Shown here in pieces: positions 3,304 to 22,065 of a stretch of 32,000 nucleotides of DNA; position 1 is the stretch's first letter; the number at the start of each line of letters is the position of its first letter. The position numbers and the translations under genes are program-made. The DNA comes from Candidatus Saccharimonadota bacterium. Its GTDB lineage: Bacteria > Patescibacteriota > Saccharimonadia > Saccharimonadales > Saccharimonadaceae. The stretch spans positions 660,001 through 692,000 of the forward strand of contig JBAQRV010000001.1 of the NCBI GenBank assembly GCA_049296095.1, written 5' to 3'. The notes under the pieces were generated by a model. It did no database searches and was not told the DNA's origin. It was given only the letters and a program-made list of their open reading frames with translations.

Positions 3304-4842
3304 CTATTCGGTGATGTCGCGGATGACAGTTATTTGTGCACCGAGGGTATTGAGTCGTTCGGCTAAGTCCTCGTAGCCACGGTTAATCGAGTAAATGTTG
3401 CGCAGTGTCGAGACGCCAGGGGCAGCCAACATACCGAGGAGAATAACAACGGCAGGTCGAAGAGCTGGAGGAGTGACGACCTCAGCTGGCTTCCATTTGG
3501 TCGGACCCTCGATGTAGACACGGTGCGGGTCGAGCAGCTCGATCTTGGCATTGAGTTTAGTGAGCTCGGTCAGGTAGATGGCACGGTTTTCGTATACCCA
3601 GTCGTGAATGAGTGTACGGCCCTTGGCGGTTGCCGCAATAACGGCAAAGAACGGAAGGTTGTCAATATTGAGACCAGGGAAAGGCATTGAGTGAATTTTG
3701 TCGATCGGTGCTTTCAGATCGCTTGGCTTTGTTGTGATGTCTACCAGTCGAGTGTAACCATTCAGGGCCGTGTACTCATCAGACAATTCATACTGGAATC
3801 CCATGTTTTCGAGGAATTTTAGTTCTATTTCGAGGAATTCAATCGGGGCGCGTTCGATAGTAATCTCAGATTTTGTCACGATTGCAGCGGCAATAAAGCT
3901 CATCGCCTCGATTGGGTCCTCAGATGGAGCATATTCAACGTTTTTATTGATATCTTTCTGTCCATGGATAGTCAGTGTCGTTGTGCCGATACCCTCAATC
4001 TTGATACCCAATTTAAGAAGGAAGAAACAAAGATCTTGTACCATGTAGTTTGGGCTAGCGTTGCGGATAACGGTAACGCCGTCGTTCAGTGCCGCTGCCA
4101 TGATAATGTTTTCGGTCACAGTATCACCGCGCTCAGATAGAATGATTGGCCTTTCTGGGTGAATCGGTTTTGAAACTGCTTCGTAGTGACCGGTGACGGT
4201 GTCTACCTTGAGGCCGAAGTATTCCAGGCCACTCAGATGTGGCTCGACGGTCCGTTCACCGAGGGTGCAACCACCAGCATAGGGAATCTCAAACGTTTTG
4301 TGGCGGTGCATGAGTGGTCCGAGGAACATAATGATGCTGCGTGTTTTTCGAGCTGCCTCGACATCCATCGATTCAAGTTTGAGGCGAGCAGGAGGAATAA
4401 TCTCAAGGTCGTTATCGCCAAACCAACGGGTCTTCACACCAATACTATTGAGGACCTCGAGGATACGGTTCACTTCTTCGATGCGAGCGACGTGACGGAG
4501 GACTGTTGTGCCACGGTTGAGGAGTGAGGCACAAAGAAGTGCGACAGCGGCGTTCTTGCTCGTTTTGGTGATGATGTGGCCGGAAAGTTTATGTCCACCT
4601 TCGATACGGAAATTAACTGAACCCGACTGATTGAGGGTGATGATCTGGCTTGACAAAACGTCGCTAATACGCGCTAACATCTCAAGGCTGATATTTTGGC
4701 CGCCTTTTTCAATGCGATTTATGGCGCTTTGACTAGTGTTTAGGGCCTTTGCAAGCTGACTTTGGGTCATGCCGCGGGCCTGTCTCGTCTCTTGTATCAG
4801 AGTGCCAATCTTTGACGTATAGGTTTTTGGTTGCATAACCAT
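3304..4842 (-). CDS. murA: UDP-N-acetylglucosamine 1-carboxyvinyltransferase (MurA) with an N-terminal XRE-type helix-turn-helix domain fusion
   Basis: The first ~70 aa read MTQSQLAKALNTSQSAINRIEKGGQNISLEMLARISDVL, a classic HTH_3 pattern. The rest is MurA-like: TSKNAAV (Lys22 equivalent), GGCTLGERTVEPH (catalytic Cys115 equivalent) and C-terminal INRGYEDLAERLNTLGA. A second Met codon lies at 4836. Confidence 0.85.
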   Translation of the reverse strand: MVMQPKTYTSKIGTLIQETRQARGMTQSQLAKALNTSQSAINRIEKGGQNISLEMLARISDVLSSQIITLNQSGSVNFRIEGGHKLSGHIITKTSKNAAVALLCASLLNRGTTVLRHVARIEEVNRILEVLNSIGVKTRWFGDNDLEIIPPARLKLESMDVEAARKTRSIIMFLGPLMHRHKTFEIPYAGGCTLGERTVEPHLSGLEYFGLKVDTVTGHYEAVSKPIHPERPIILSERGDTVTENIIMAAALNDGVTVIRNASPNYMVQDLCFFLLKLGIKIEGIGTTTLTIHGQKDINKNVEYAPSEDPIEAMSFIAAAIVTKSEITIERAPIEFLEIELKFLENMGFQYELSDEYTALNGYTRLVDITTKPSDLKAPIDKIHSMPFPGLNIDNLPFFAVIAATAKGRTLIHDWVYENRAIYLTELTKLNAKIELLDPHRVYIEGPTKWKPAEVVTPPALRPAVVILLGMLAAPGVSTLRNIYSINRGYEDLAERLNTLGAQITVIRDITE

Positions 4843-6282: not shown

Positions 6283-6804
6283 CTATGCTGCGGTAGGGCA
6301 GGCAGTAGTATCACCGACATCAACAGGGGTGCTGGTGACCGCACCCGTGTTGTAGTCCCAGAACCAGATTTCTAATCCTGAAATCTCTGCCGCGGTATCA
6401 ATTGTCGCTTGCTGATCCGGTGATGGTGTAGCAGCAGCACATTTACGGATAACAACAGTGTTGGTTCCGTTTGATGCGCTTAGCGTAGCAGTACTGGCAG
6501 CGAAGCTCCAGTTTGGATTCGTCGCGCTCATGTAATAAGAGGCTGTCGTTGCTGCACCCGTGAAGTCGGCTGCTGCGAACGGATATTTTCCAGTAGGGCC
6601 GTCAGCTTGGTAGAGCTCAGCCTTTTTTTGTACGGTTGCCGCGGTTGCTTTTGCGCTCGCAGCATTTGCTCGGCTAGTAATACCGTTATAAGAAACAAGT
6701 GTAATAGCGGCCAGGATACCGATAACAACAATCACAATCAAGAGTTCAACGATCGTGAAGCCTTTTTGTGCTTGTAATTTAGCTTTGATGTTATTGAGAC
6801 TCAT
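6283..6804 (-). CDS. Type IV (major-type) pilin-like protein
   Basis: Prepilin signature KG|FTIVELLIVIVVIGILAAI (Gly-1, Phe+1, Glu+5). A C-terminal Cys pair (RKCAAA ... TTACPTAA) is typical of a D-region disulfide. Confidence 0.85.
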   Translation of the reverse strand: MSLNNIKAKLQAQKGFTIVELLIVIVVIGILAAITLVSYNGITSRANAASAKATAATVQKKAELYQADGPTGKYPFAAADFTGAATTASYYMSATNPNWSFAASTATLSASNGTNTVVIRKCAAATPSPDQQATIDTAAEISGLEIWFWDYNTGAVTSTPVDVGDTTACPTAA

Positions 6805-6892
6805 TGTTGAGTTGCCCCCTATTTATAATGTAGTTTATTCTGAGACTAATGTACTACGCTAGCGCAATAAGCGCAAGCTTTTTAGCTCAATT

Positions 6893-7381
6893 TTATGAGG
6901 TCGGGCAAGCGATACCGGACCCCGAATCATTACCAACAGAGACGTAACTATTGGCATTGCCACCGTTGGTGTAGGTCCAGTAATAGACGCGAGTACCCCT
7001 AATATTGTTATTGGTACTGCTGATGTTGGCTTGAGTCGCATTAGGTGTTGTACCGCATTTTAGGAGTTTGACCGTCTTTGGGGTGGTGGGTTGGGTCGCT
7101 CCCAGATCAAACGCCACAGTAGTAGCGTCGATATAATAGGGCTTGCTGTGAGCGCTAGTAAGACTACTAATATCATAGGCGTATGCGCCAGTTTCGGACT
7201 TGAAGCTTTCCAGTTTGCGAGCGACCATGTTAGCCGTGTCCTCGGCGGTAGAATTATTTGCGCGTTGAGTAACGCCACTATAGGACACGATCATAATCGT
7301 GGCGAGGATACCGATGATGACAATCACGATAAGGAGCTCGATGATAGTGAAGCCAGATTTTTTAAGCGTTAGCATGTTCAT
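6893..7381 (-). CDS. Type IV pilin-like protein, tandem paralog of 6283..6804
   Basis: KKSG|FTIIELLIVIVIIGILATI, with the same C-terminal Cys spacing (LLKCGTT ... GIACPTS). The ORF-track start at 7387 is GTG; in-frame ATG codons at 7381 and 7375 are more plausible starts. Confidence 0.85.
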   Translation of the reverse strand: MNMLTLKKSGFTIIELLIVIVIIGILATIMIVSYSGVTQRANNSTAEDTANMVARKLESFKSETGAYAYDISSLTSAHSKPYYIDATTVAFDLGATQPTTPKTVKLLKCGTTPNATQANISSTNNNIRGTRVYYWTYTNGGNANSYVSVGNDSGSGIACPTS

Positions 7382-7417
7382 TATCACTATATAGTACCTT
7401 ATTCTTTAGATGCAAAT

Positions 7418-9502
7418 TTACTGTTCAGCGACAAAGTTGATACCATCAAGACTGAGCCAGACATTGGAACCAAGAATATATCTAACATCGCCATTCGCCA
7501 ATATGTCGATACGGGCAACGCCGTTGTAAGCATTAGCAACAGATATCAGCAGTCGGCCAGCTGGTCGATAGCCAGCAGGCAGGGTTAAGATGTTTGTATC
7601 TTGGGTTGCTGCACTTCCCCTACCGAGGAGTCCCTTGAGACTGACGACTCCATCACTTCCCTTGGTATATTGAGGTGTCGAGAACGGAGCACCGTAATGA
7701 ACCCAGCTGTTCTGCAGGGTCATATTGCACCACTGAGTTGTACAGGTGCTGCCGGTTGCGCGACTCGATGGCCAATAAAGTGAGTGAATTGAATACCATG
7801 CATTGCTACCGCCCTTTGCATCTGCAACACTTGGTGAAGCGCTAACGGAAAAGACAGTATTACCATTTGCAAAGGCAGGCATGTGCATATATTGATTAGG
7901 CGTAGTTGAGGCGGGAAGCGTCCATAGATCAGTGCCGTCAGTTGCTGTTCCTCCGGATATCATCGCCCGTAGTTCGACGCGACCGCTGCCATCAATGGCA
8001 TAGCCAGGGGCCTGTCCGTAGAACGAGTCACCGTAGACGACCCACCCGTTAAGTAACGAGAGGGATGTAAAAGTTGTCCCACTTGGTTGGAAGGCGATAC
8101 CATCTAAACTTACATCGCTATTGATTCCAGAAATCTGCACGACCCCATCAGCACGAACATCAACACGTGTTACCGCACTATTACCTACTCTTTGGTAAAT
8201 ATAGTTTTGTGACGGACGGTAGCCTACGGGTAGAGTCGCAATGGTCTGAGGGTTTGTGCTATTACCTGGTCTTCTCAATAAGCCTTTTAGTACAACAACG
8301 CCAGCAGAGGTTTTTGTGTATCCACCTGGTGCCCATACGTCGCCGTAGTCGACCCAGCCATTTTGGAAATTAAAGTTAGCCCACTTAGGGATTGTAATGG
8401 TAGAGGTTGCGCTGTATGCCGACGTCCCTGCAGTATTAGTTGCTGAGACTCGGCCATTAATCACATCAGTATGGGTACCAGCTGTGACCGTATAAGTATT
8501 GACGTTCTGGTTAGTGACAGGTGTTTGCCAGGCGCCACCATTGATGTTGTATTGGAAGGTATATGAGTCGGCGCCATTGACTTTTGGCCATGTGTAGATC
8601 ACCGAAGTAGGGCTAGACAGTACGCCCGATAGGGTGGGAGCACTCGGCGTTGTTGGGGTAACGACATCCGCAATAGCCGAAGCATTCGTATCAAGGCGAC
8701 TAACACGCACAACAGCTGATCGTTCGATTGTTCGCCCTGCGACGTTTTGGGAGGCATTGATAGCGACACTTGCCGTAGAGAGTGACTGTAGGGCGGTGCC
8801 ACGTTCACCAATTGATACTAAGGTATCTGAAGCGACTGTATTGACCGCGGTTGAAGCAGCGGAATTGTAGTAGCTGACGTTGAAGTTTGCCGCCGTGACA
8901 CCTTCGACAAGTTTGATGTCTTCGGTCTTGCAGAAGACAGCCGTATAGCCTGGTGCGCAGCTTGGTTGTTGCCACGGAGCGACACAATAGACAGACAGGC
9001 TGGTGTAATTTGACGGCATAATGGTGCGACGCCATAGCGTGTTGTTTTTAACAAAATAGACAATATTAATACTCATCGGTGTGTTATCAGCGACTCGACT
9101 ATCGCCGCAGGCATTTGGTTTGTCCTTTTGGTAGACAATACCGCTAGTTGTTGCCAATGGATTACCGGTGGTGGCAAGGGTATTGAGAATCAGACTCGTC
9201 CCACTAGTCCCGCCAACGTTCGTAAAGGCAGTCGCATCATTGTTGTAGCCCTGTGCCTCGCCAGCAACCAAGGTAATATTGTTTGTCGCCAGGAAGGTGG
9301 TGCTGAGCTTGACGTCCTGTTCTATCCGATTTAAGGCATCCTGGACGTTATAGGTGAGGACATTTGATGCTCGTGATGAGAGAACCTCACCGGTCATGCT
9401 GATAATGACAGTCAAGAAGGCGCCAATTGCCAAAATGACGATCGGCGCGATGACGAGCATTTCAATGAGGGTAAAGCCGCGTTGCAGTGTGTGACGGATC
9501 AT
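7418..9502 (-). CDS. Large pilin-like (minor pilin or tip adhesin candidate) protein: prepilin N-terminus, FN3-like domain and three tandem ~100-aa beta-rich repeats
   Basis: QRG|FTLIEMLVIAPIV prepilin motif. FN3-like segment PSAPTLSGVLSSPTSVIYTWPKVNGADSYTFQY. Three repeats share the pattern (Q/L)N(G/S)WV.YG ... LKGLL ... TLP.GYRP ... DG(I)(A/N)F. The ATG at 9502 forms an ATGA overlap with the upstream stop; the ORF track lists 9514. Confidence 0.8.
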   Translation of the reverse strand: MIRHTLQRGFTLIEMLVIAPIVILAIGAFLTVIISMTGEVLSSRASNVLTYNVQDALNRIEQDVKLSTTFLATNNITLVAGEAQGYNNDATAFTNVGGTSGTSLILNTLATTGNPLATTSGIVYQKDKPNACGDSRVADNTPMSINIVYFVKNNTLWRRTIMPSNYTSLSVYCVAPWQQPSCAPGYTAVFCKTEDIKLVEGVTAANFNVSYYNSAASTAVNTVASDTLVSIGERGTALQSLSTASVAINASQNVAGRTIERSAVVRVSRLDTNASAIADVVTPTTPSAPTLSGVLSSPTSVIYTWPKVNGADSYTFQYNINGGAWQTPVTNQNVNTYTVTAGTHTDVINGRVSATNTAGTSAYSATSTITIPKWANFNFQNGWVDYGDVWAPGGYTKTSAGVVVLKGLLRRPGNSTNPQTIATLPVGYRPSQNYIYQRVGNSAVTRVDVRADGVVQISGINSDVSLDGIAFQPSGTTFTSLSLLNGWVVYGDSFYGQAPGYAIDGSGRVELRAMISGGTATDGTDLWTLPASTTPNQYMHMPAFANGNTVFSVSASPSVADAKGGSNAWYSIHSLYWPSSRATGSTCTTQWCNMTLQNSWVHYGAPFSTPQYTKGSDGVVSLKGLLGRGSAATQDTNILTLPAGYRPAGRLLISVANAYNGVARIDILANGDVRYILGSNVWLSLDGINFVAEQ

Positions 9503-9921
9503 CCCATACTCCATGAAGTCAAGATACTACTAACGGTAATTCCGTTAGCGTAGGTTGAGAATTTCAGAGTTTGCTGAGGGTCGTTATAGGTGATAATAAC
9601 TTCAATCTTAGATAGTCCCGAGACAGTGAGACCTGGAGGACAGGAGATTACTACCGAAATAGACACATTAGACAGTCCATCGATCTCTACAGACGAGTTA
9701 GTGAGGGGGGTAGACGCAACACAGGGATTAACCGCCTGAGGTGAGTATCTCCGAAGATAGTCGTACGCTACATTACTCGCCCTCGATTCAGCGCGGGCTT
9801 GGCCACCGTCCTTAATGACGACGTTGAATAGCTGGTAGGCGGCAATCAAAAAGGCAGCAGCAACGAAGAGAGTGATGAGGAGTTCGACTGCGGTGAAACC
9901 AGATTGGGAAGATTTTATCAT
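9499..9921 (-). CDS. Minor pilin / pseudopilin-like protein
   Basis: SQSG|FTAVELLITLFVAAAFLIAAY prepilin-type N-terminus. It has ATGA overlaps with both neighbouring genes. Confidence 0.75.
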   Translation of the reverse strand: MIKSSQSGFTAVELLITLFVAAAFLIAAYQLFNVVIKDGGQARAESRASNVAYDYLRRYSPQAVNPCVASTPLTNSSVEIDGLSNVSISVVISCPPGLTVSGLSKIEVIITYNDPQQTLKFSTYANGITVSSILTSWSMG

Positions 9922-10433
9922 CGATTTTTACTCGTTACCACGTAGACGGTGTTATCTTTTTCGAGACGGTAGTAGAGATTATACTTTCGACCTGTTGCGC
10001 CAGTACTATTTAAGGAGCCATCAGCATTGAGCGGTTGGTAAACGTATTGATTAATAGTCGGTTGAGGCAATACGCCTGTTGTTGTCTGTAAATTATTAGT
10101 TGCAGATATTAAACTGAGCGCCGGTGAAGTGACGCCTGGTGCGCGTAGTGCATCGGGATCGATATCACGTAGTACTTGAAGAATAAAGGCTTCGCCGCCA
10201 CTTGTTGTAAATGCCGCCGAAGGGTATCGACCGACATCGCTAGGGCTATTATCGTAACCGACTCTATAAAAATTTTCAAGGTGAGAAGCAATTATCTCAA
10301 CGTCAGCGGTTCGTTCGGCATCGCGAGAGCTCATTTGGCTTGAACTAAGATTAACAACCGCAAGCAACAACAAGATGCCCATAATAGTGATCGTAATGAT
10401 CAATTCGACAATGGTAAACCCACGCGTTCGCAT
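9918..10433 (-). CDS. Minor pilin / pseudopilin-like protein
   Basis: MRTRG|FTIVELIITITIMGILLLLAV prepilin-type N-terminus with a short leader. Confidence 0.8.
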   Translation of the reverse strand: MRTRGFTIVELIITITIMGILLLLAVVNLSSSQMSSRDAERTADVEIIASHLENFYRVGYDNSPSDVGRYPSAAFTTSGGEAFILQVLRDIDPDALRAPGVTSPALSLISATNNLQTTTGVLPQPTINQYVYQPLNADGSLNSTGATGRKYNLYYRLEKDNTVYVVTSKNR

Positions 10434-17681: not shown

Positions 17682-19016
17682 TTATTGGTTCAATGCACGA
17701 CGGCTAGCGATGTAGTAAGCAAGGCTTGCAATCAGGGCACCAAGGCCAACAATGGCAACAATGTTTTCGGTTGTACCTGTTTTTGGAAGTTCAGGTGGAG
17801 TATCGGCACACTTAGACAAGTCTTTAGTGTACTTGTTACTGTCGAAATCTTTTTCGTCGATCGTAACGATCTTCTTAGTAGAGAGTTCACAGACAGTGAT
17901 TTTTCCAGGCTGACATTCTTTATTAACCTTAACGTCAGCTGATGCCTCTTTTGTTCCAGTGCTAGTAATAACATTCGCAACGTTATGGAGAGTGTTCACT
18001 CCACAAGTAGGAAGAGTTGCGTTATCGGCAACCTTGGCGCTGAACTTAACGTAAGCGTTTGAAGTTGGACCGTATGATCCGATATTTAAACCAGCCGCTG
18101 TAACGCCATCACTTGCAGCCTTGTAACCACCGCCAGTAAAGGCGCTTGCTACGAGCGTGCTTCCAGGAACGTAACTTACGTTTGCAGGAAGGGTGTCCTT
18201 CACTGTCACGTTGTCTTGCTGAGTTGTGCCCTTGTTAGTGTAGATAACTCGGTAAAGAATCGTACTACCAGGGGTTGTTTGAGCATTAGTTGACCATGTT
18301 TTACCACCGTCAACACTCACTTGCTTCTCGACTGAGAAATCAGGCTTATCGACAACAAATTCGTAGATAACATATCCAGCAAATTGGTTACAACCAGGAA
18401 GTGAGCCATTTAGGCTGTCATATCCCAGCGGGGTTCCAGACGTGAGGAAGCTATCAGGAAGTGTGGCACCATTAACAGCACCATTACTTGTGACTTTTGC
18501 TGATGCAGGAACATATCGCAAGTACAGCTTGTCACCAGTTTCGTTCTTCATGTTTGCGCTGTCCCATACAGATGTAGGGTTAGCGTTAGATGAGTTGATG
18601 AAACCACTAACAAGTGATGTTGTGTTAGCTGTAACTTCTCCGGGCATCTGCATACGTAGGGTAACGTCTTTTGCAATGCCAGCACCACTTGCATTTAAGC
18701 TAGTGGCTGCGTTGTTGTGGTAATAAACCATAACTTGGTACGTTTTGCCCGCTTGGAGCGAAACGTTCTCGTCGTAGTCAGCTTGTGTGCCCTTTTCACG
18801 AACACGTACAAAGTTTCGCTCATCGCCAACACTTGGGTTGTCGGTGATCGAGTTAAATGTAACGTAAGGGGCAGGGTTTGCGAACGTAAATGTTGCGCGG
18901 TCTACCGGACCATAAGCGAAGACGGCTACTGGAACAATAATTGCTGCTGCAATCATTGCGACAACTGCTGTTACGCGTTTTGGAGCACGGCGGATGAGTG
19001 AGAGTAATTTACTCAT
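17682..19016 (-). CDS. LPXTG-anchored cell-surface protein with a DUF11-type repeat
   Basis: N-terminal signal/TM (VTAVVAMIAAAIIVPVAVFA). C-terminal sorting signal LPKTG, then a hydrophobic stretch and RRALNQ. The DUF11-like block is STILYRVIYTNKGTTQQDNVTVKDTLPANVSYVPGST. Confidence 0.85.
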   Translation of the reverse strand: MSKLLSLIRRAPKRVTAVVAMIAAAIIVPVAVFAYGPVDRATFTFANPAPYVTFNSITDNPSVGDERNFVRVREKGTQADYDENVSLQAGKTYQVMVYYHNNAATSLNASGAGIAKDVTLRMQMPGEVTANTTSLVSGFINSSNANPTSVWDSANMKNETGDKLYLRYVPASAKVTSNGAVNGATLPDSFLTSGTPLGYDSLNGSLPGCNQFAGYVIYEFVVDKPDFSVEKQVSVDGGKTWSTNAQTTPGSTILYRVIYTNKGTTQQDNVTVKDTLPANVSYVPGSTLVASAFTGGGYKAASDGVTAAGLNIGSYGPTSNAYVKFSAKVADNATLPTCGVNTLHNVANVITSTGTKEASADVKVNKECQPGKITVCELSTKKIVTIDEKDFDSNKYTKDLSKCADTPPELPKTGTTENIVAIVGLGALIASLAYYIASRRALNQ

Positions 19017-19102
19017 TATTGATTCTCCGTTTCTTGATTCATCTCGCAGGATTGAATCAAACTTAATATAAAAATTGAAAACACTGTTACCGGATTGTCA
19101 AT

Positions 19103-19145
19103 GTTACAAATCAGATCATTACAATGTGCACGTTCTTGCCGCACG
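19103..19145. repeat. Left arm of an imperfect ~40-bp inverted repeat (partner at 21387..21427)
   Basis: The left arm gttacaaatcagatcattacaatgtgcacgttcttgccgcacg aligns with the reverse complement of the partner, gttaacaagtcagatcattacagtgcacgttctttagcacg. Identical blocks are tcagatcattaca and gtgcacgttctt. Confidence 0.75.
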
Positions 19146-19240
19146 AGTAAGGGATTACTCCCAAGGAATCTAAGACTATGAGGTGGGCGAACCACCAGAT
19201 AGAAGATAGACTCCTTAGGTCAAAGCTGTAGGCGAGGTTC

Positions 19241-19276
19241 CCAGGGGGCAGCACGACAGGTCGTGTCACCCCCTGG
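19241..19276 (-). terminator. GC-rich hairpin immediately downstream of the 350-aa ORF (terminator-like, no U tract)
   Basis: CCAGGGGG-cag-CACGAC..GTCGTG-tca-CCCCCTGG, starting 9 nt after the stop codon at 19285-19287. Confidence 0.45.
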
Positions 19277-19284
19277 TTCACTCA

Positions 19285-20337
19285 TCAGGCGTCTGGATCC
19301 GCGATCGGTGTAGTCGGCGCCTGTGTAGGTGGCGGCGCGATAACGGGATCAGGCGCGGGAGCGGGAACGGGAACAGGATCGGAGTGTGGCGGGGTTGCCG
19401 GGTTCAAAGGAACCGCGGGTGCCACCGGTGGAGTGTGCTCCGGTGCGTCAATCCCTTTCGGGGCGACGAACGGGGGCTCATCCACACTGTCAATCTGGTT
19501 CTTCGCGTCACAGTTCACCGTACAGGGAGGAGGACCGCAGTTAGTGGTGCACGGGGGCACCTCACTGCAGTTCTCCGTGCACCCAGGCTGGGCCGGAGTT
19601 CCTTCACACTCGAAGACTTCCAACCTCTTGTCCTCGGCGTTGAAACCGATTCGGAAGAGGCAGTTGCCGTTCTTGTCCAGGAGTGTGCGCACCCATGCGG
19701 GCTTGCTCTCCTGTTCGGACGCCAACCTTGCGGTCGGCAGTGTGATAGGTGAGGCATCGGCGGGGACCTCCCAGTTCCTGATCGAGGTGAGCGACTGCTT
19801 ACCCTCGGTCGTGAAGCGGAGCAGGACGGCGTTGAGCCATCCAGCGTACTTCTGGAACTGAGGAGTGACGATCAACACGTCGTTCTCGGTCTTCTCGACG
19901 AACGAGTCGAGACCGTTGGTGTTGATGTCATCCAGAATGACCTGGATCCACGCCTTGTTGCCTTCTGCGCCCTTGACGGTCCACAGCATCATGTCGTCGG
20001 CGATCATACGGAGGAACGTGGGGTTACCACAGACCTCCATCGTGACCTCCTTGTTCACAGCTTCGTCGTCGGACCCCGCGACGGGGATCGAGACTGCTGT
20101 TGCGAACTGACGGTACTCCGAATTGCCGACCTTAACGGTCTGCAGGGAGGAGTCGATGAAGTGGTTATCGGTGCACCGCGCGTCGTCGGGAACCAGATCG
20201 GTTTCCGGGTCGAACGCAACAGTGCCGGACGGGGTGTTGCTGGAATCCGTGGCCTGGAAGGCGAACGGCACCAGCAAGATCCCCACAACGACGACTGCAG
20301 CAATGGCTGCCACAATCCCCTTTGCTTTCTTGCTCAT
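19285..20337 (-). CDS. Hypothetical membrane-anchored or secreted protein with a triple CTxNC motif and a Pro-rich C-terminal tail
   Basis: The SD AGGAGG (20348..20343) lies 5 nt before the ATG. N-terminal TM/signal GIVAAIAAVVVVGILLVPFAF. The motifs CTENC..CTTNC..CTVNC fall at aa 253-276, followed by a PVPVPAPAPDPVIAPPPTQAPTTP tail. GC3-rich codons favour this frame over the antisense ORFs. Confidence 0.65.
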   Translation of the reverse strand: MSKKAKGIVAAIAAVVVVGILLVPFAFQATDSSNTPSGTVAFDPETDLVPDDARCTDNHFIDSSLQTVKVGNSEYRQFATAVSIPVAGSDDEAVNKEVTMEVCGNPTFLRMIADDMMLWTVKGAEGNKAWIQVILDDINTNGLDSFVEKTENDVLIVTPQFQKYAGWLNAVLLRFTTEGKQSLTSIRNWEVPADASPITLPTARLASEQESKPAWVRTLLDKNGNCLFRIGFNAEDKRLEVFECEGTPAQPGCTENCSEVPPCTTNCGPPPCTVNCDAKNQIDSVDEPPFVAPKGIDAPEHTPPVAPAVPLNPATPPHSDPVPVPAPAPDPVIAPPPTQAPTTPIADPDA

Positions 20338-20464
20338 TTTGACCTCCTAGGCCAATCGGTCCCTAATTCTTAAAGCCCCAGGGAAAGGATGGGCTAGCGA
20401 GCGAGGCGGTATGAGCCGCCACAAGACAAATCTTGTAGAGTCAAAACTCTTCGCCCTGTCCGCA

Positions 20465-21163
20465 TTACGCTACGGGCACAGCGGCTGGCGGTGCCGGCGG
20501 GTTGGGCTGAGCTACCTCGTCCTCCGGGGAGGTGAAGTAGCCACTCAGGAAGAACCCGAGTGCCGGCCAGCCGACCCAGTGAAGGATCGACAGGATAACT
20601 CCAGCCACGTGCCACTTGGGATCGTGGTTGAAGAACCAGTCCTGCACGAACCACCCCCAAAGGAGGGCGGCGACGAGCAGGGCGAGCACGGTCGCGAAAG
20701 CGATGAGCCATCCCCAGCGATGCCAGTTCCACCGCCTCGGGTTGAAGTTGGTGTACCAGTGGTGAGCCGGCGGCGTCACAACCACAGCCGCCGGAGCGGG
20801 TGCGGGAATGACGACGGTGTCGATGACCGGCTCGGGCACGACCGCTGCGGGTGCAGCGACGGGCTCGGGTTCGGTGATGACCGGCTCGGGAACGACCGCT
20901 GCGGGTGCAGCGACGGGCTCGGTGGAAGGAGGGGCAACGGGCAGGTCAGGATCGATCTGGCTGAGGACTTCCTCTGCTTCGTCGATCCTGTCCTGCAAGC
21001 GTCGCTTTGCCAAGCGCGCGCCGTAGTCGATCTCGGACTGCACTTTGAGTGCATCCTTGATCTCCTTCCTGCGCTTCTTGACTTCCTTCTTGCCTGCGGC
21101 GCTCAAGTCGAGCAGCGCATTAGTGGCGGCATCTGCCTCATCGGCAATATCGATGGTGGACAT
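20465..21163 (-). CDS. Hypothetical protein: charged helical N-terminus, tandem Pro/Ala/Val repeat, Trp-rich C-terminal membrane domain
   Basis: KKEVKKRRKEIKDALKVQSEIDYGARLAKRRLQDRIDEAEE (coiled-coil-like). The unit EPVAAPAAVVPEPVI occurs twice. The C-terminal region contains WNWHRWGWLIAFATVLALLVAALLWGWF and VAGVILSILHWVGWPALGFFLSGYF. GC3-rich codons support this frame. Confidence 0.65.
   Translation of the reverse strand: MSTIDIADEADAATNALLDLSAAGKKEVKKRRKEIKDALKVQSEIDYGARLAKRRLQDRIDEAEEVLSQIDPDLPVAPPSTEPVAAPAAVVPEPVITEPEPVAAPAAVVPEPVIDTVVIPAPAPAAVVVTPPAHHWYTNFNPRRWNWHRWGWLIAFATVLALLVAALLWGWFVQDWFFNHDPKWHVAGVILSILHWVGWPALGFFLSGYFTSPEDEVAQPNPPAPPAAVPVA
20822..20922. repeat. Tandem direct repeat: two 47-nt copies at a 54-nt period with 1 mismatch, inside the 232-aa ORF
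   Basis: Copies at 20822-20868 and 20876-20922 read gatgaccggctcggg(c/a)acgaccgctgcgggtgcagcgacgggctcgg. The period equals 18 codons, so the repeat is in frame. Confidence 0.9.
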
Positions 21164-21386
21164 AGTATCCCTTTCCTATTTCGTGTGTCGAGTTGGGGAT
21201 GACCCCGAATCAATAAAGATTGGGGAGGACCCCCAGCTGCGTGACACTAGGTCAGGTGCAGCGTGTCAATTAACCATATAAATGATTAACTGGCGCGCCA
21301 CACCTGAAAGAAAGGTACTGTCTGGTATACTTGCGTATACCTATAGCTTTGTTATCAGTGCGTCTTAAAGCATGAATATAAATAGA

Positions 21387-21427
21387 CGTGCTAAAGAACG
21401 TGCACTGTAATGATCTGACTTGTTAAC
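21387..21427. repeat. Right arm of the inverted repeat paired with 19103..19145
   Basis: The sequence cgtgctaaagaacgtgcactgtaatgatctgacttgttaac is the reverse complement match of the left arm. Confidence 0.75.
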
Positions 21428-21614
21428 GACCTCTCCACGTCCATGAGCCTCACGCCCACTGGTGAATGATGTTCTTAATCTATCATATTAATGCTAAATT
21501 GTCAATAACGTAAGCAATAATATGACATAAAGCACAAGCATTATTGATTACCATTCTCGACAGACGCTATATGTAGCGGTGATTCCAGATATGAAACACT
21601 ATATATAATACTAT

Positions 21615-21643
21615 TTGACAAGGGTTGTCAAGGAGAGTATATT
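21615..21643 (+). promoter_or_regulatory. Near-consensus sigma70-type promoter TTGACA-17 nt-TATATT with an embedded palindromic operator TTGACAA-ggg-TTGTCAA
   Basis: -35 TTGACA at 21615-21620, a 17-nt spacer, and -10 TATATT at 21638-21643. The perfect 7-3-7 palindrome spans 21615-21631. It lies about 85 nt upstream of ATG 21730, which has a GGGAG SD. Confidence 0.55.
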
Positions 21644-21729
21644 GCCATGTTATGTGCAGAATCAGCGCCCGCTGGTTGCTTGGATCTCATGATTTGAGTT
21701 TAGTGCACTGTGCAAAATAAGGGAGTCGC

Positions 21730-22065
21730 ATGACTATTGCATCACCCGAGTCCATCACTCGGCCCATCGACGAGATGGTGACGGAGGGTTTCAGAGAGAC
21801 CTGTGACAAAGTGATTGCTAACGGTGGACTCGTTCACCAGATGCAAGATAGGCTGTTCCAGCTCTGCGAAATCTCCCAACGCCAGTACGACATCGAGATG
21901 GTGAGGGACCTGATGGTCTACCTGGTGATAATTAAGGGGGTGTTTATCGGTGCCGTTGTACGAGAAATCCGTCTTCACGACGTTATATTCTCGGACCTCG
22001 TCGCGAAGGAAGCTGCTCAGCGGAAGGCTGTAGTGGCTGACGGTGACAAGGTCGCAGCGGCATGA
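21730..22065 (+). CDS. Hypothetical small protein (111 aa), first gene of an ATGA-coupled small-ORF operon
   Basis: SD GGGAG at 21721-21725, elevated GC, and a stop that overlaps the next start (ATGA at 22062-22065). No family recognised. Confidence 0.55.
   Translation: MTIASPESITRPIDEMVTEGFRETCDKVIANGGLVHQMQDRLFQLCEISQRQYDIEMVRDLMVYLVIIKGVFIGAVVREIRLHDVIFSDLVAKEAAQRKAVVADGDKVAAA

Follow-up and report, generated by a model that had tools for sequence, protein, structure and literature searches.

The DNA analysed here is a 32,000-nt window from a Candidatus Saccharimonadota bacterium (contig JBAQRV010000001.1, positions 660,001 to 692,000), within which a pair of imperfect inverted repeats brackets a GC-rich two-gene cassette; all coordinates are positions in this window, and the sense orientation of the locus is the window minus strand. 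In that orientation, a first gene encoding a 232-aa protein (20465-21163, minus), recognized as an open reading frame (ORF), precedes a second gene encoding a 350-aa protein (19285-20337, minus), which was defined by its ORF, its homologues, and an AlphaFold model. An LPXTG/DUF11 (CLIPPER) surface-protein gene, identified by domain match (17682-19016, minus), follows. One arm of the repeat, termed the U arm (21394-21423, minus), is situated upstream of the cassette; the other, termed the D arm (19106-19137, minus), is found between the 350-aa gene and the LPXTG gene. These arms are, in our assessment, likely to be the 5′ strand (U) and the 3′ strand (D) of a long-range RNA helix, H1, which would close a single transcript from its leader to its trailer.

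Inverted repeats of ~40 bp with shared perfect blocks of 13 and 12 nt had been reported at this locus in a preliminary description made from the sequence alone, and both observations hold. When the left arm was aligned locally, with gaps allowed, to the right arm in reverse complement, the score was 49 over 36 columns (one 1-nt gap, one 2-nt gap, and one mismatch), vs. a mean of 14.5 and a maximum of 27 for 3000 random pairs of 120-nt window segments, placing the arm similarity far above chance. Exact searches located the 13-nt block at 19111-19123 and 21406-21418 and the 12-nt block at 19126-19137 and 21394-21405, each unique to those two places in 32 kb. A repeat finder returned a 21-nt block at 90% complementarity together with the perfect 12-nt block, and a degenerate core pattern matched twice in 32 kb, i.e., at the two arms, with a chance expectation of 0.02. 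The conserved, pairing part of the arms could be narrowed to 19106-19137 and 21394-21423. As read from the sequence, the arms are asymmetric ~30-mers devoid of internal dyad or direct-repeat symmetry. The reported lack of a flanking target-site duplication was also borne out, with the outer flanks (...ggattgtcaat on one side and gacctctccacg... on the other) displaying no direct repeat, as was the presence between the arms of a GC-rich cassette holding the 350-aa and 232-aa ORFs, both on the minus strand (GC 0.59-0.66 inside vs. ~0.44-0.49 outside).

To place the arms in an evolutionary context, contexts of 350-aa homologues were gathered by three routes, including genome and metagenome contigs, yielding orthologous loci from 13 other Candidatus Saccharibacteria lineages that, with the window, constitute a set of 14. 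These lineages are deeply diverged in a nearly star-like manner. Gene order is constant: after the small divergent ORFs comes the variable first gene, which is followed by the 350-aa family gene, the LPXTG/DUF11 gene, and a histidine kinase; in the recovered loci, the three genes between the divergent ORFs and the kinase are all co-directional. The LPXTG gene directly follows the D arm and always shares its direction with the cassette. In every locus spanning both positions, the arm core CAARTCRGATYRTTRYA occurs exactly twice, once forward and upstream of the cassette and once reversed and between the 350-aa family and LPXTG genes, always at the same syntenic position. While the cassette (350-aa) homologues are 41-58% identical, the arms are ~90-100% conserved in the same lineages, and the intergenic DNA adjoining the arms is much less conserved than the arms; at the level of sequence comparison, this shows the arms themselves to be under purifying selection. 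An exact pattern, TCAGATCATTACAN{0,2}GTGCACGTT, had 0 matches in genome contigs, being too strict for the orthologues, which mostly carry GTGCATGTC. Contigs that encode the 350-aa and 232-aa proteins unchanged match the window at 100% identity and in the same orientation, and are therefore uninformative about variation within the strain.

The arms have been retained even as the content of the bracket has changed. Comparison of the window with lineages L009, L023, L027, L029, and L031 revealed at least two unrelated families in the first-gene slot (a tryptophan-rich membrane type and an "ALDAAAPD"-repeat type), whereas the 350-aa family gene is the constant gene of the bracket across lineages. 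In TM7i (CP075337, locus at 186-203 kb), the first-gene slot is empty, such that the leader leads directly to the 350-aa family gene, with the arms retained. Across lineages, the bracketed genes encode proteins of 105-460 aa. Base composition is also a stable property of the locus, with a GC content inside the bracket of 0.55-0.62 vs. 0.43-0.53 in the flanks of the 14 loci (one N-filled flank being at 0.39). In the window, GC content at third codon positions (GC3) is 0.75-0.80 for the bracketed genes vs. 0.38-0.54 for nearby housekeeping and sensor genes. The bracketed genes hence form a stable codon-usage island, with a GC excess in all 14 lineages. As this high GC content is conserved across lineages, it is not evidence of recent transfer. 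Given that arms, synteny, and high GC are all conserved across lineages and that the first gene is exchangeable, the comparative data rule out a recent insertion of the two-gene cassette.

As sense RNA, the U arm in the window reads ACAAGUCAGAUCAUUACA followed by GUGCACGUUCUU, while the D arm reads AAGAACGUGCAC-AU-UGUAAUGAUCUGAUUUGU, the AU at 19124-19125 constituting a bulge. Across lineages, the U arm takes the form ACAAGUCAGAUCAUUACA followed by GUGCAYGUC, and the D arm is its complement with 1-4 extra nt between the blocks. In all cases it is the D arm that holds this inter-arm indel, the length (1-4 nt) and sequence of which both vary; from its sequence pattern, the indel behaves as would an RNA bulge. 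Changes in one arm are matched by changes in the other: GAUCAUU to GAUUAUU in three lineages; AUUACA to AUUAUA and GUGCAU to GUGUAU in one lineage each; and UCAGAU to UCGGAU together with CGUC to CAUC in one lineage. Lineage-specific arm tails are also matched between the arms. Given the deep and roughly star-like divergence of the lineages, several of the H1 double changes are independent.

Covariation in H1 was quantified over 30 pairs in a 13-lineage alignment (A2; 390 cells), in which the row L013 + L012 is a composite with arms from different samples carrying the same protein. Pairing was found in 94.4% of the cells, vs. 26-39% when the partner was slid by 1-3 columns; 10 of the 30 pairs have changed on both sides, vs. 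4.0 in shuffles; and the covariation score was 0.165, vs. 0.081 in shuffles. For four of five measures, 0 of 500 shuffles reached the observed value. These shuffle controls ignore phylogeny, a concern lessened by the slid-partner controls and by the star-like tree. RNAalifold, unprompted, predicted the same 27-bp helix (17 bp, bulge, 10 bp), and when the predicted transcript was folded in its entirety (1.8-2.5 kb), the minimum-free-energy structure contained H1 in six of six species, with 16-17 of the 17 core pairs and 8-9 of the 9 second-block pairs. On the coding strand, 368 of the 390 cells pair, including 20 G·U pairs, of which a single inherited position contributes 12; the opposite strand has 350 paired cells, with 2 G·U. 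The position in question is G·U in 12 of the 13 lineages and A-U in the thirteenth, a difference that is neutral for pairing in the sense RNA. This strand asymmetry points to the coding strand in a manner that is suggestive rather than decisive.

Nested within H1 is a second complementary pair, H2, the 5′ strand of which (U2, 21340-21350, minus; AAAGCUAUAGG) is ~40 nt downstream of the U arm, and the 3′ strand of which (D2, 19222-19232, minus; CCUACAGCUUU) is ~85 nt upstream of the D arm, directly after the hairpin that trails the 350-aa gene. Both strands were identified from alignments and covariation, with the pair appearing in the alignments as AAGCUAUAGG on the U2 side and CCUAUAGCUU on the D2 side. 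In different lineages, the variants UUGCUAUUGCAA, UGCUAUAG, and CUAUAUAC are matched on both sides, as are CUAUAAG and CUAUAGU. Double changes affect 9 of the 14 pairs (alignment A3); pairing reaches 79%, vs. 26-44% in slid controls, and the covariation score is 0.324, vs. 0.125 for shuffled alignments, none of which (0 of 500) attained it. Folding of the whole flanks with duplexfold always included H2, but over-extended the interaction, and was put to no further evidential use. Across lineages, H1 and H2 are ~40-60 nt apart on the 5′ side, compared with ~85-100 nt on the 3′ side, and the two intervening stretches are not complementary to each other, containing co-varying local hairpins instead. 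On the 3′ side, this corresponds to a trailer domain between D2 and the D arm (19138-19221, minus) with two or three such hairpins. Judging from the alignments, this layout is that expected of a multi-helix RNA junction and not of a DNA site.

The leader also encodes a competitor for the U arm. The hexamer GCACUG (21356-21361, minus), positioned 20-50 nt downstream of the U-arm segment CAGUGCAUGUC, is complementary to CAGUGC within the U arm, and 12 of 15 lineages carry it unaltered. Folds of the leader alone placed the U arm in this GCACUG hairpin in most lineages. The hairpin and the second block of H1 are mutually exclusive, which suggests an ordered folding pathway, with the GCACUG hairpin potentially acting as a switch between two folding states.

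Transcription of the cassette is predicted to begin at promoter P2 (21477-21505, minus), composed of TTGACA, a 17-nt spacer, and a TG-extended TAGATT, which matches the consensus at 10 of 12 positions in addition to the TG extension and is conserved in every lineage (with the −10 element as TAnATT across lineages). The predicted start is ~50 nt upstream of the U arm, such that this arm would occupy about +50 to +85 of the 5′ leader of the predicted cassette mRNA. The leader itself (21164-21476, minus) is a conserved and structured ~310-nt region containing the U arm, U2, and further co-varying hairpins. With H1 ending at 21394 and the first start codon at 21163, both H1 and H2 are clear of the ribosome-binding site of the first gene. 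At the other end of the cassette, a GC-rich hairpin follows the stop codon of the 350-aa gene (19241-19276, minus); its position is kept in orthologues while its sequence changes, and it has no U tract in any lineage. Read-through past this hairpin to the D arm is plausible given the missing U tract.

These features suggest the following model. Transcription from P2 would proceed through the ~310-nt leader with the U arm, the variable first gene, and the 350-aa gene, then pass the U-tract-less hairpin and reach the D arm just before the LPXTG gene. In the nascent RNA, part of the U arm (CAGUGCAUGUC) would be held in the local hairpin with GCACUG. Once made, the D arm would pair with the U arm to generate H1, comprising 17 bp, a 1-4 nt bulge in the 3′ strand, and ~10 bp; H2 (~10 bp) would form as well, thus closing a loop of ~2.2 kb. 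Most likely, the resulting ~27-bp duplex would then be cut by ribonuclease III (RNase III), so that the cassette and LPXTG mRNAs would come apart; instead of this, or besides it, the paired ends may shield the cassette mRNA from decay. An architecture of 17 + 10 bp fits the approximately two helical turns that RNase III requires. We consider it probable that the arms function through RNA pairing, while an RNase III cleavage step at the H1 duplex is a possibility to which we would give somewhat less than an even chance. The repeat and its conservation, the covariation, the strand asymmetry, the nested helix, and the conserved promoter are observations, whereas joint transcription of the two arms, cutting by RNase III, and any consequence for expression belong to the model.

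Several observations weigh against this model. Covariation between the arms could also stem from co-evolution with a single DNA-binding protein. The start site, the read-through past the hairpin, and the presence of both arms on one RNA are all predictions. Directly after the D arm is a −35-like TTGACA/TTAACA motif, which also fits a DNA operator accompanied by an LPXTG promoter. As H1 covers no ribosome-binding site, no direct effect on translation is evident. The strand comparison depends largely on the one inherited G·U position, and certain single-lineage positions are A·C mismatches in the sense RNA that would be G·U in the antisense (L019 and L021/L023 in H1; W and L019 in H2). Finally, matched changes in both arms are the expected outcome of gene conversion as well.

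The explanation that we would rank next, although improbable, is that the arms are two operator copies for one transcription factor, perhaps bridged by DNA looping. In its favour, both arms are promoter-proximal and non-coding, with the U arm 50 nt past P2 and the −35-like motif abutting the D arm, and the conserved neighbourhood includes a histidine kinase and a response-regulator receiver. Against it, each arm is ~30 nt long and lacks internal dyad or direct-repeat symmetry; the block spacing differs by 1-4 nt between the copies, the repeated matched substitutions are unlike the drift of independent operators, the nested second complementary pair co-varies at unequal spacing, and the one conserved difference between the arms is accommodated, as G·U, only at the RNA level. 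A duplicated regulatory module with each arm facing outward towards a flanking transcription unit had been one of three readings offered in the preliminary description; its regulatory part is upheld by the strong selection on these non-coding, promoter-near arms, whereas the notion of two outward-facing copies of a DNA site is not, because the evidence fits two strands of one RNA helix with transcription in the same direction. Still less probable is that concerted evolution at the DNA level, i.e., gene conversion or recombination, keeps the arms similar, possibly after an old inverted duplication that gave rise to them. This would yield matched changes, and the shuffle control does not account for relatedness; however, stable differences between the arms (the G vs. 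A position and the bulge confined to the D arm) would have been erased, and without selection the arms would not have remained ~95% conserved beside diverging intergenic DNA and proteins of 41-58% identity. Moreover, arms of 17 + 10 bp, and an H2 of 10 bp, are well below the lengths needed for efficient recombination.

The two remaining readings of the preliminary description, both of which treat the bracket as a DNA rearrangement, we regard as highly unlikely. Were the arms crossover sites for a recombinase, the 2.3-kb segment could invert and thereby switch expression of the surface-protein genes; ~30-bp inverted repeats do flank a surface-protein segment with its main promoter outside the right arm, and one Logan contig ends within the left (D) arm at 19127. 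Four other contigs cross that arm unbroken, however, and assemblies of all 14 lineages have the segment in one orientation relative to the LPXTG and pyruvate kinase genes. The arms, moreover, show none of the half-sites with dyad symmetry that characterize tyrosine or serine recombinase cores, and they differ by a 1-4 nt indel inside the would-be site, a second repeat is nested at unequal spacing, and no recombinase was found in the 32-kb window. Equally improbable is a relic non-autonomous transposon with the arms as its terminal inverted repeats, having delivered a GC-rich cassette from a high-GC (actinobacterial) host, despite the sharp departure of the bracketed GC (0.61) and GC3 (0.75-0.80) from the flanks and the fact that Saccharibacteria live on Actinobacteria. 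The insertion site and the high GC are shared by all lineages, with arms and cassette syntenic in all 14, and no empty site (i.e., a locus without cassette and arms) was found among those recovered. The 350-aa homologues are confined to Saccharibacteria-type contigs. The first gene differs between lineages while the arms persist, and relic repeats would decay, whereas these arms are more conserved than the proteins. Furthermore, there is no target-site duplication, only two copies of the arm core occur per locus, and neither a transposase nor a recombinase was detected among the major ORFs of the window scanned with Pfam. A GC-rich island between inverted repeats, therefore, need not be a mobile element.

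Bracketing of an RNA by its own complementary ends has several precedents with which the proposed H1 helix can be compared. In bacterial rRNA operons, RNase III stems flank 16S and 23S rRNA (PMC6582327). As in those precursors, complementary sequences kilobases apart on one RNA would here form a long bracketing helix of more than ~20 bp with bulges, freeing the bracketed RNA from its transcript neighbours; unlike the rRNA case, the bracketed RNA is an mRNA for one or two membrane proteins, cleavage is only predicted, and the arms have no sequence similarity to rRNA flanks. In Staphylococcus aureus, pairing between the untranslated regions (UTRs) at the 5′ and 3′ ends of icaR mRNA creates an RNase III substrate, with a short UCCCCUG motif pairing with the Shine-Dalgarno region to block translation (PMC3868564). 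Both untranslated ends of one bacterial mRNA would likewise pair at the Saccharibacteria locus as a double-stranded, here putative, RNase III substrate; unlike icaR, the helix comprises 27 + 10 bp, has the first start codon more than 230 nt downstream of it, leaves the ribosome-binding site free, and spans ~2.2 kb over one or two genes. In the ~400-nt hok toxin mRNA, which is under the control of an antisense RNA and 3′ trimming, a tac/fbi 5′-3′ closing stem is combined with a metastable 5′ hairpin, and the family is defined by covariation (PMC9841398). The resemblance lies in a 5′-3′ stem that closes the mRNA and in a local 5′ hairpin (here predicted) that holds the 5′ strand until its 3′ partner exists. 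By contrast, the Saccharibacteria bracket encodes no toxin and has a span five times as long, and neither an antisense promoter nor an antisense RNA was identified at the locus. With the Hin/Gin/Cin and fim switches and with the ends of insertion sequences (IS) or miniature inverted-repeat transposable elements (MITEs), the locus has in common ~30-bp inverted repeats flanking a surface-protein segment of a few kb. It differs from them in its single orientation, in the lack of a target-site duplication, of a dyad-symmetric core, of a recombinase or transposase in the window, and of dispersed copies in the recovered loci, as well as in arms that display RNA-type covariation, a bulge, and a nested second helix.

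End-to-end pairing in bacterial mRNAs is known from few cases, namely hok-type toxin mRNAs, icaR, and a few others, and stems that bracket RNA over a kilobase range are otherwise characteristic of rRNA precursors; in Saccharibacteria, a bracket with clear covariation in 14 lineages encloses a protein-coding unit. We found no description in the literature of such an element, or of UTR pairing, in Saccharibacteria, which are ultrasmall bacteria that attach to other bacteria and in which gene regulation is almost unstudied. The bracketed and downstream genes encode membrane and cell-wall-anchored proteins, plausible players at the cell surface. Confirmation would thus provide an RNA motif absent from Rfam as well as a testable handle on post-transcriptional control in these organisms. 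A more far-reaching idea, which we put forward tentatively and consider rather doubtful, is that the rRNA-style processing and closing stem and the metastable 5′ hairpin together form a dedicated post-transcriptional device of Saccharibacteria, which would be a clade-wide new class of cis-acting mRNA element in candidate phyla radiation bacteria. In such a device, a helix of 27 + 10 bp formed 2.2 kb away would signal to the 5′ leader that transcription had run the full length of the variable gene slot and the conserved membrane-protein gene; RNase III cleavage or end-pairing would set the stability and stoichiometry of the cassette mRNA relative to the downstream LPXTG surface protein, and the anomalous, conserved GC3 within the bracket would belong to this mode of expression.

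Certain additional candidates were considered and rejected. A third, outer helix, in which ACCAGG located upstream of the U arm would pair with a CCUGG found downstream of the D arm, was dismissed, as the D-side motif is kept regardless of the U side and several lineages have A·C mismatches at this site. A small leader peptide overlapping the U arm (MDVERSLTSQIITVHVL*, ending in a stop, in the window) was likewise discounted, since its start and stop are unconserved, its three codon positions are equally conserved, and it would leave the D arm unexplained. Rfam at the gathering score recovered only tRNAs in the window, and a permissive search (E up to 5) of 18950-21750 revealed nothing credible; a Guanidine-II match on the opposite strand (E = 0.74) was deemed noise.

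The intergenic regions at either end of the bracket contain further conserved elements. Between the D arm and the LPXTG/DUF11 gene, directly before the ribosome-binding site of the latter, is a conserved stem-loop (19034-19060, minus) of the form UUGAUU...CUGCGAGA...AAUCAA, the loop of which is invariant in 12 of the 12 lineages aligned, and which may be a separate cis-regulatory element. Upstream of the cassette, two overlapping divergent promoters appear to take their −35 boxes from a conserved palindrome, TTGACAA-N4-TTGTCAA (~21608-21650), one promoter (21615-21643, plus) being directed towards the small-ORF operon and the other, ~130 nt upstream of P2, towards the cassette. Between the two cassette-directed promoters, all lineages possess a conserved near-palindrome, CGCTAYATNTAGCG (21565-21578), that could be a protein-binding site or a small hairpin. 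Within the leader, ~60 nt upstream of the start codon of the 232-aa gene, a small GC hairpin with a T-rich tail (21221-21235, minus) might act as an attenuator; a similar hairpin is present in L019 and absent from most other lineages.

Neither cassette protein, nor either of the two small divergent ORFs, could be assigned to a family in Pfam or NCBIfam. The 350-aa protein has a membrane anchor at its N-terminus, a conserved domain with cysteines, and a tail rich in proline. Only 27 relatives were found among 5.8 billion proteins, one of them annotated as Candidatus Saccharibacteria bacterium TM7i, and 37 residues are invariant in the family, four cysteines among them. Its AlphaFold model (mf0322eb4eb01) has a predicted local distance difference test (pLDDT) score above 90 for residues ~40-245, and a fold search of the PDB with this model returned no chain at E <= 0.001; the protein may possibly represent a new extracellular fold restricted to Saccharibacteria. 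In the 232-aa protein, the N-terminus is a coiled coil, proline-rich repeats are present, and the C-terminal part is a membrane region rich in tryptophan. Its gene contains a 54-bp tandem duplication (20822-20922; 47 nt at 98% identity), which gives the protein a repeated stretch rich in proline, alanine, and valine; three Logan contigs break exactly at this duplication.

Beyond the bracket, the neighbours include the histidine kinase, the response-regulator receiver, and the two small divergent ORFs, as well as a tRNA and then the genes for pyruvate kinase, phosphoglycerate kinase, and triosephosphate isomerase. Elsewhere in the window, a cluster on the minus strand (6283-10433) encodes at least four proteins with prepilin-type N-terminal methylation motifs, together with a 698-aa pseudopilin-like protein, and looks like a minor-pilin operon of a type IV pilus. 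Also on the minus strand, at 3304-4842, is a gene for a 512-aa protein in which an N-terminal Cro/C1-type helix-turn-helix is fused to an enzyme domain of the EPSP-synthase fold (MurA/AroA type), an unusual combination of domains.

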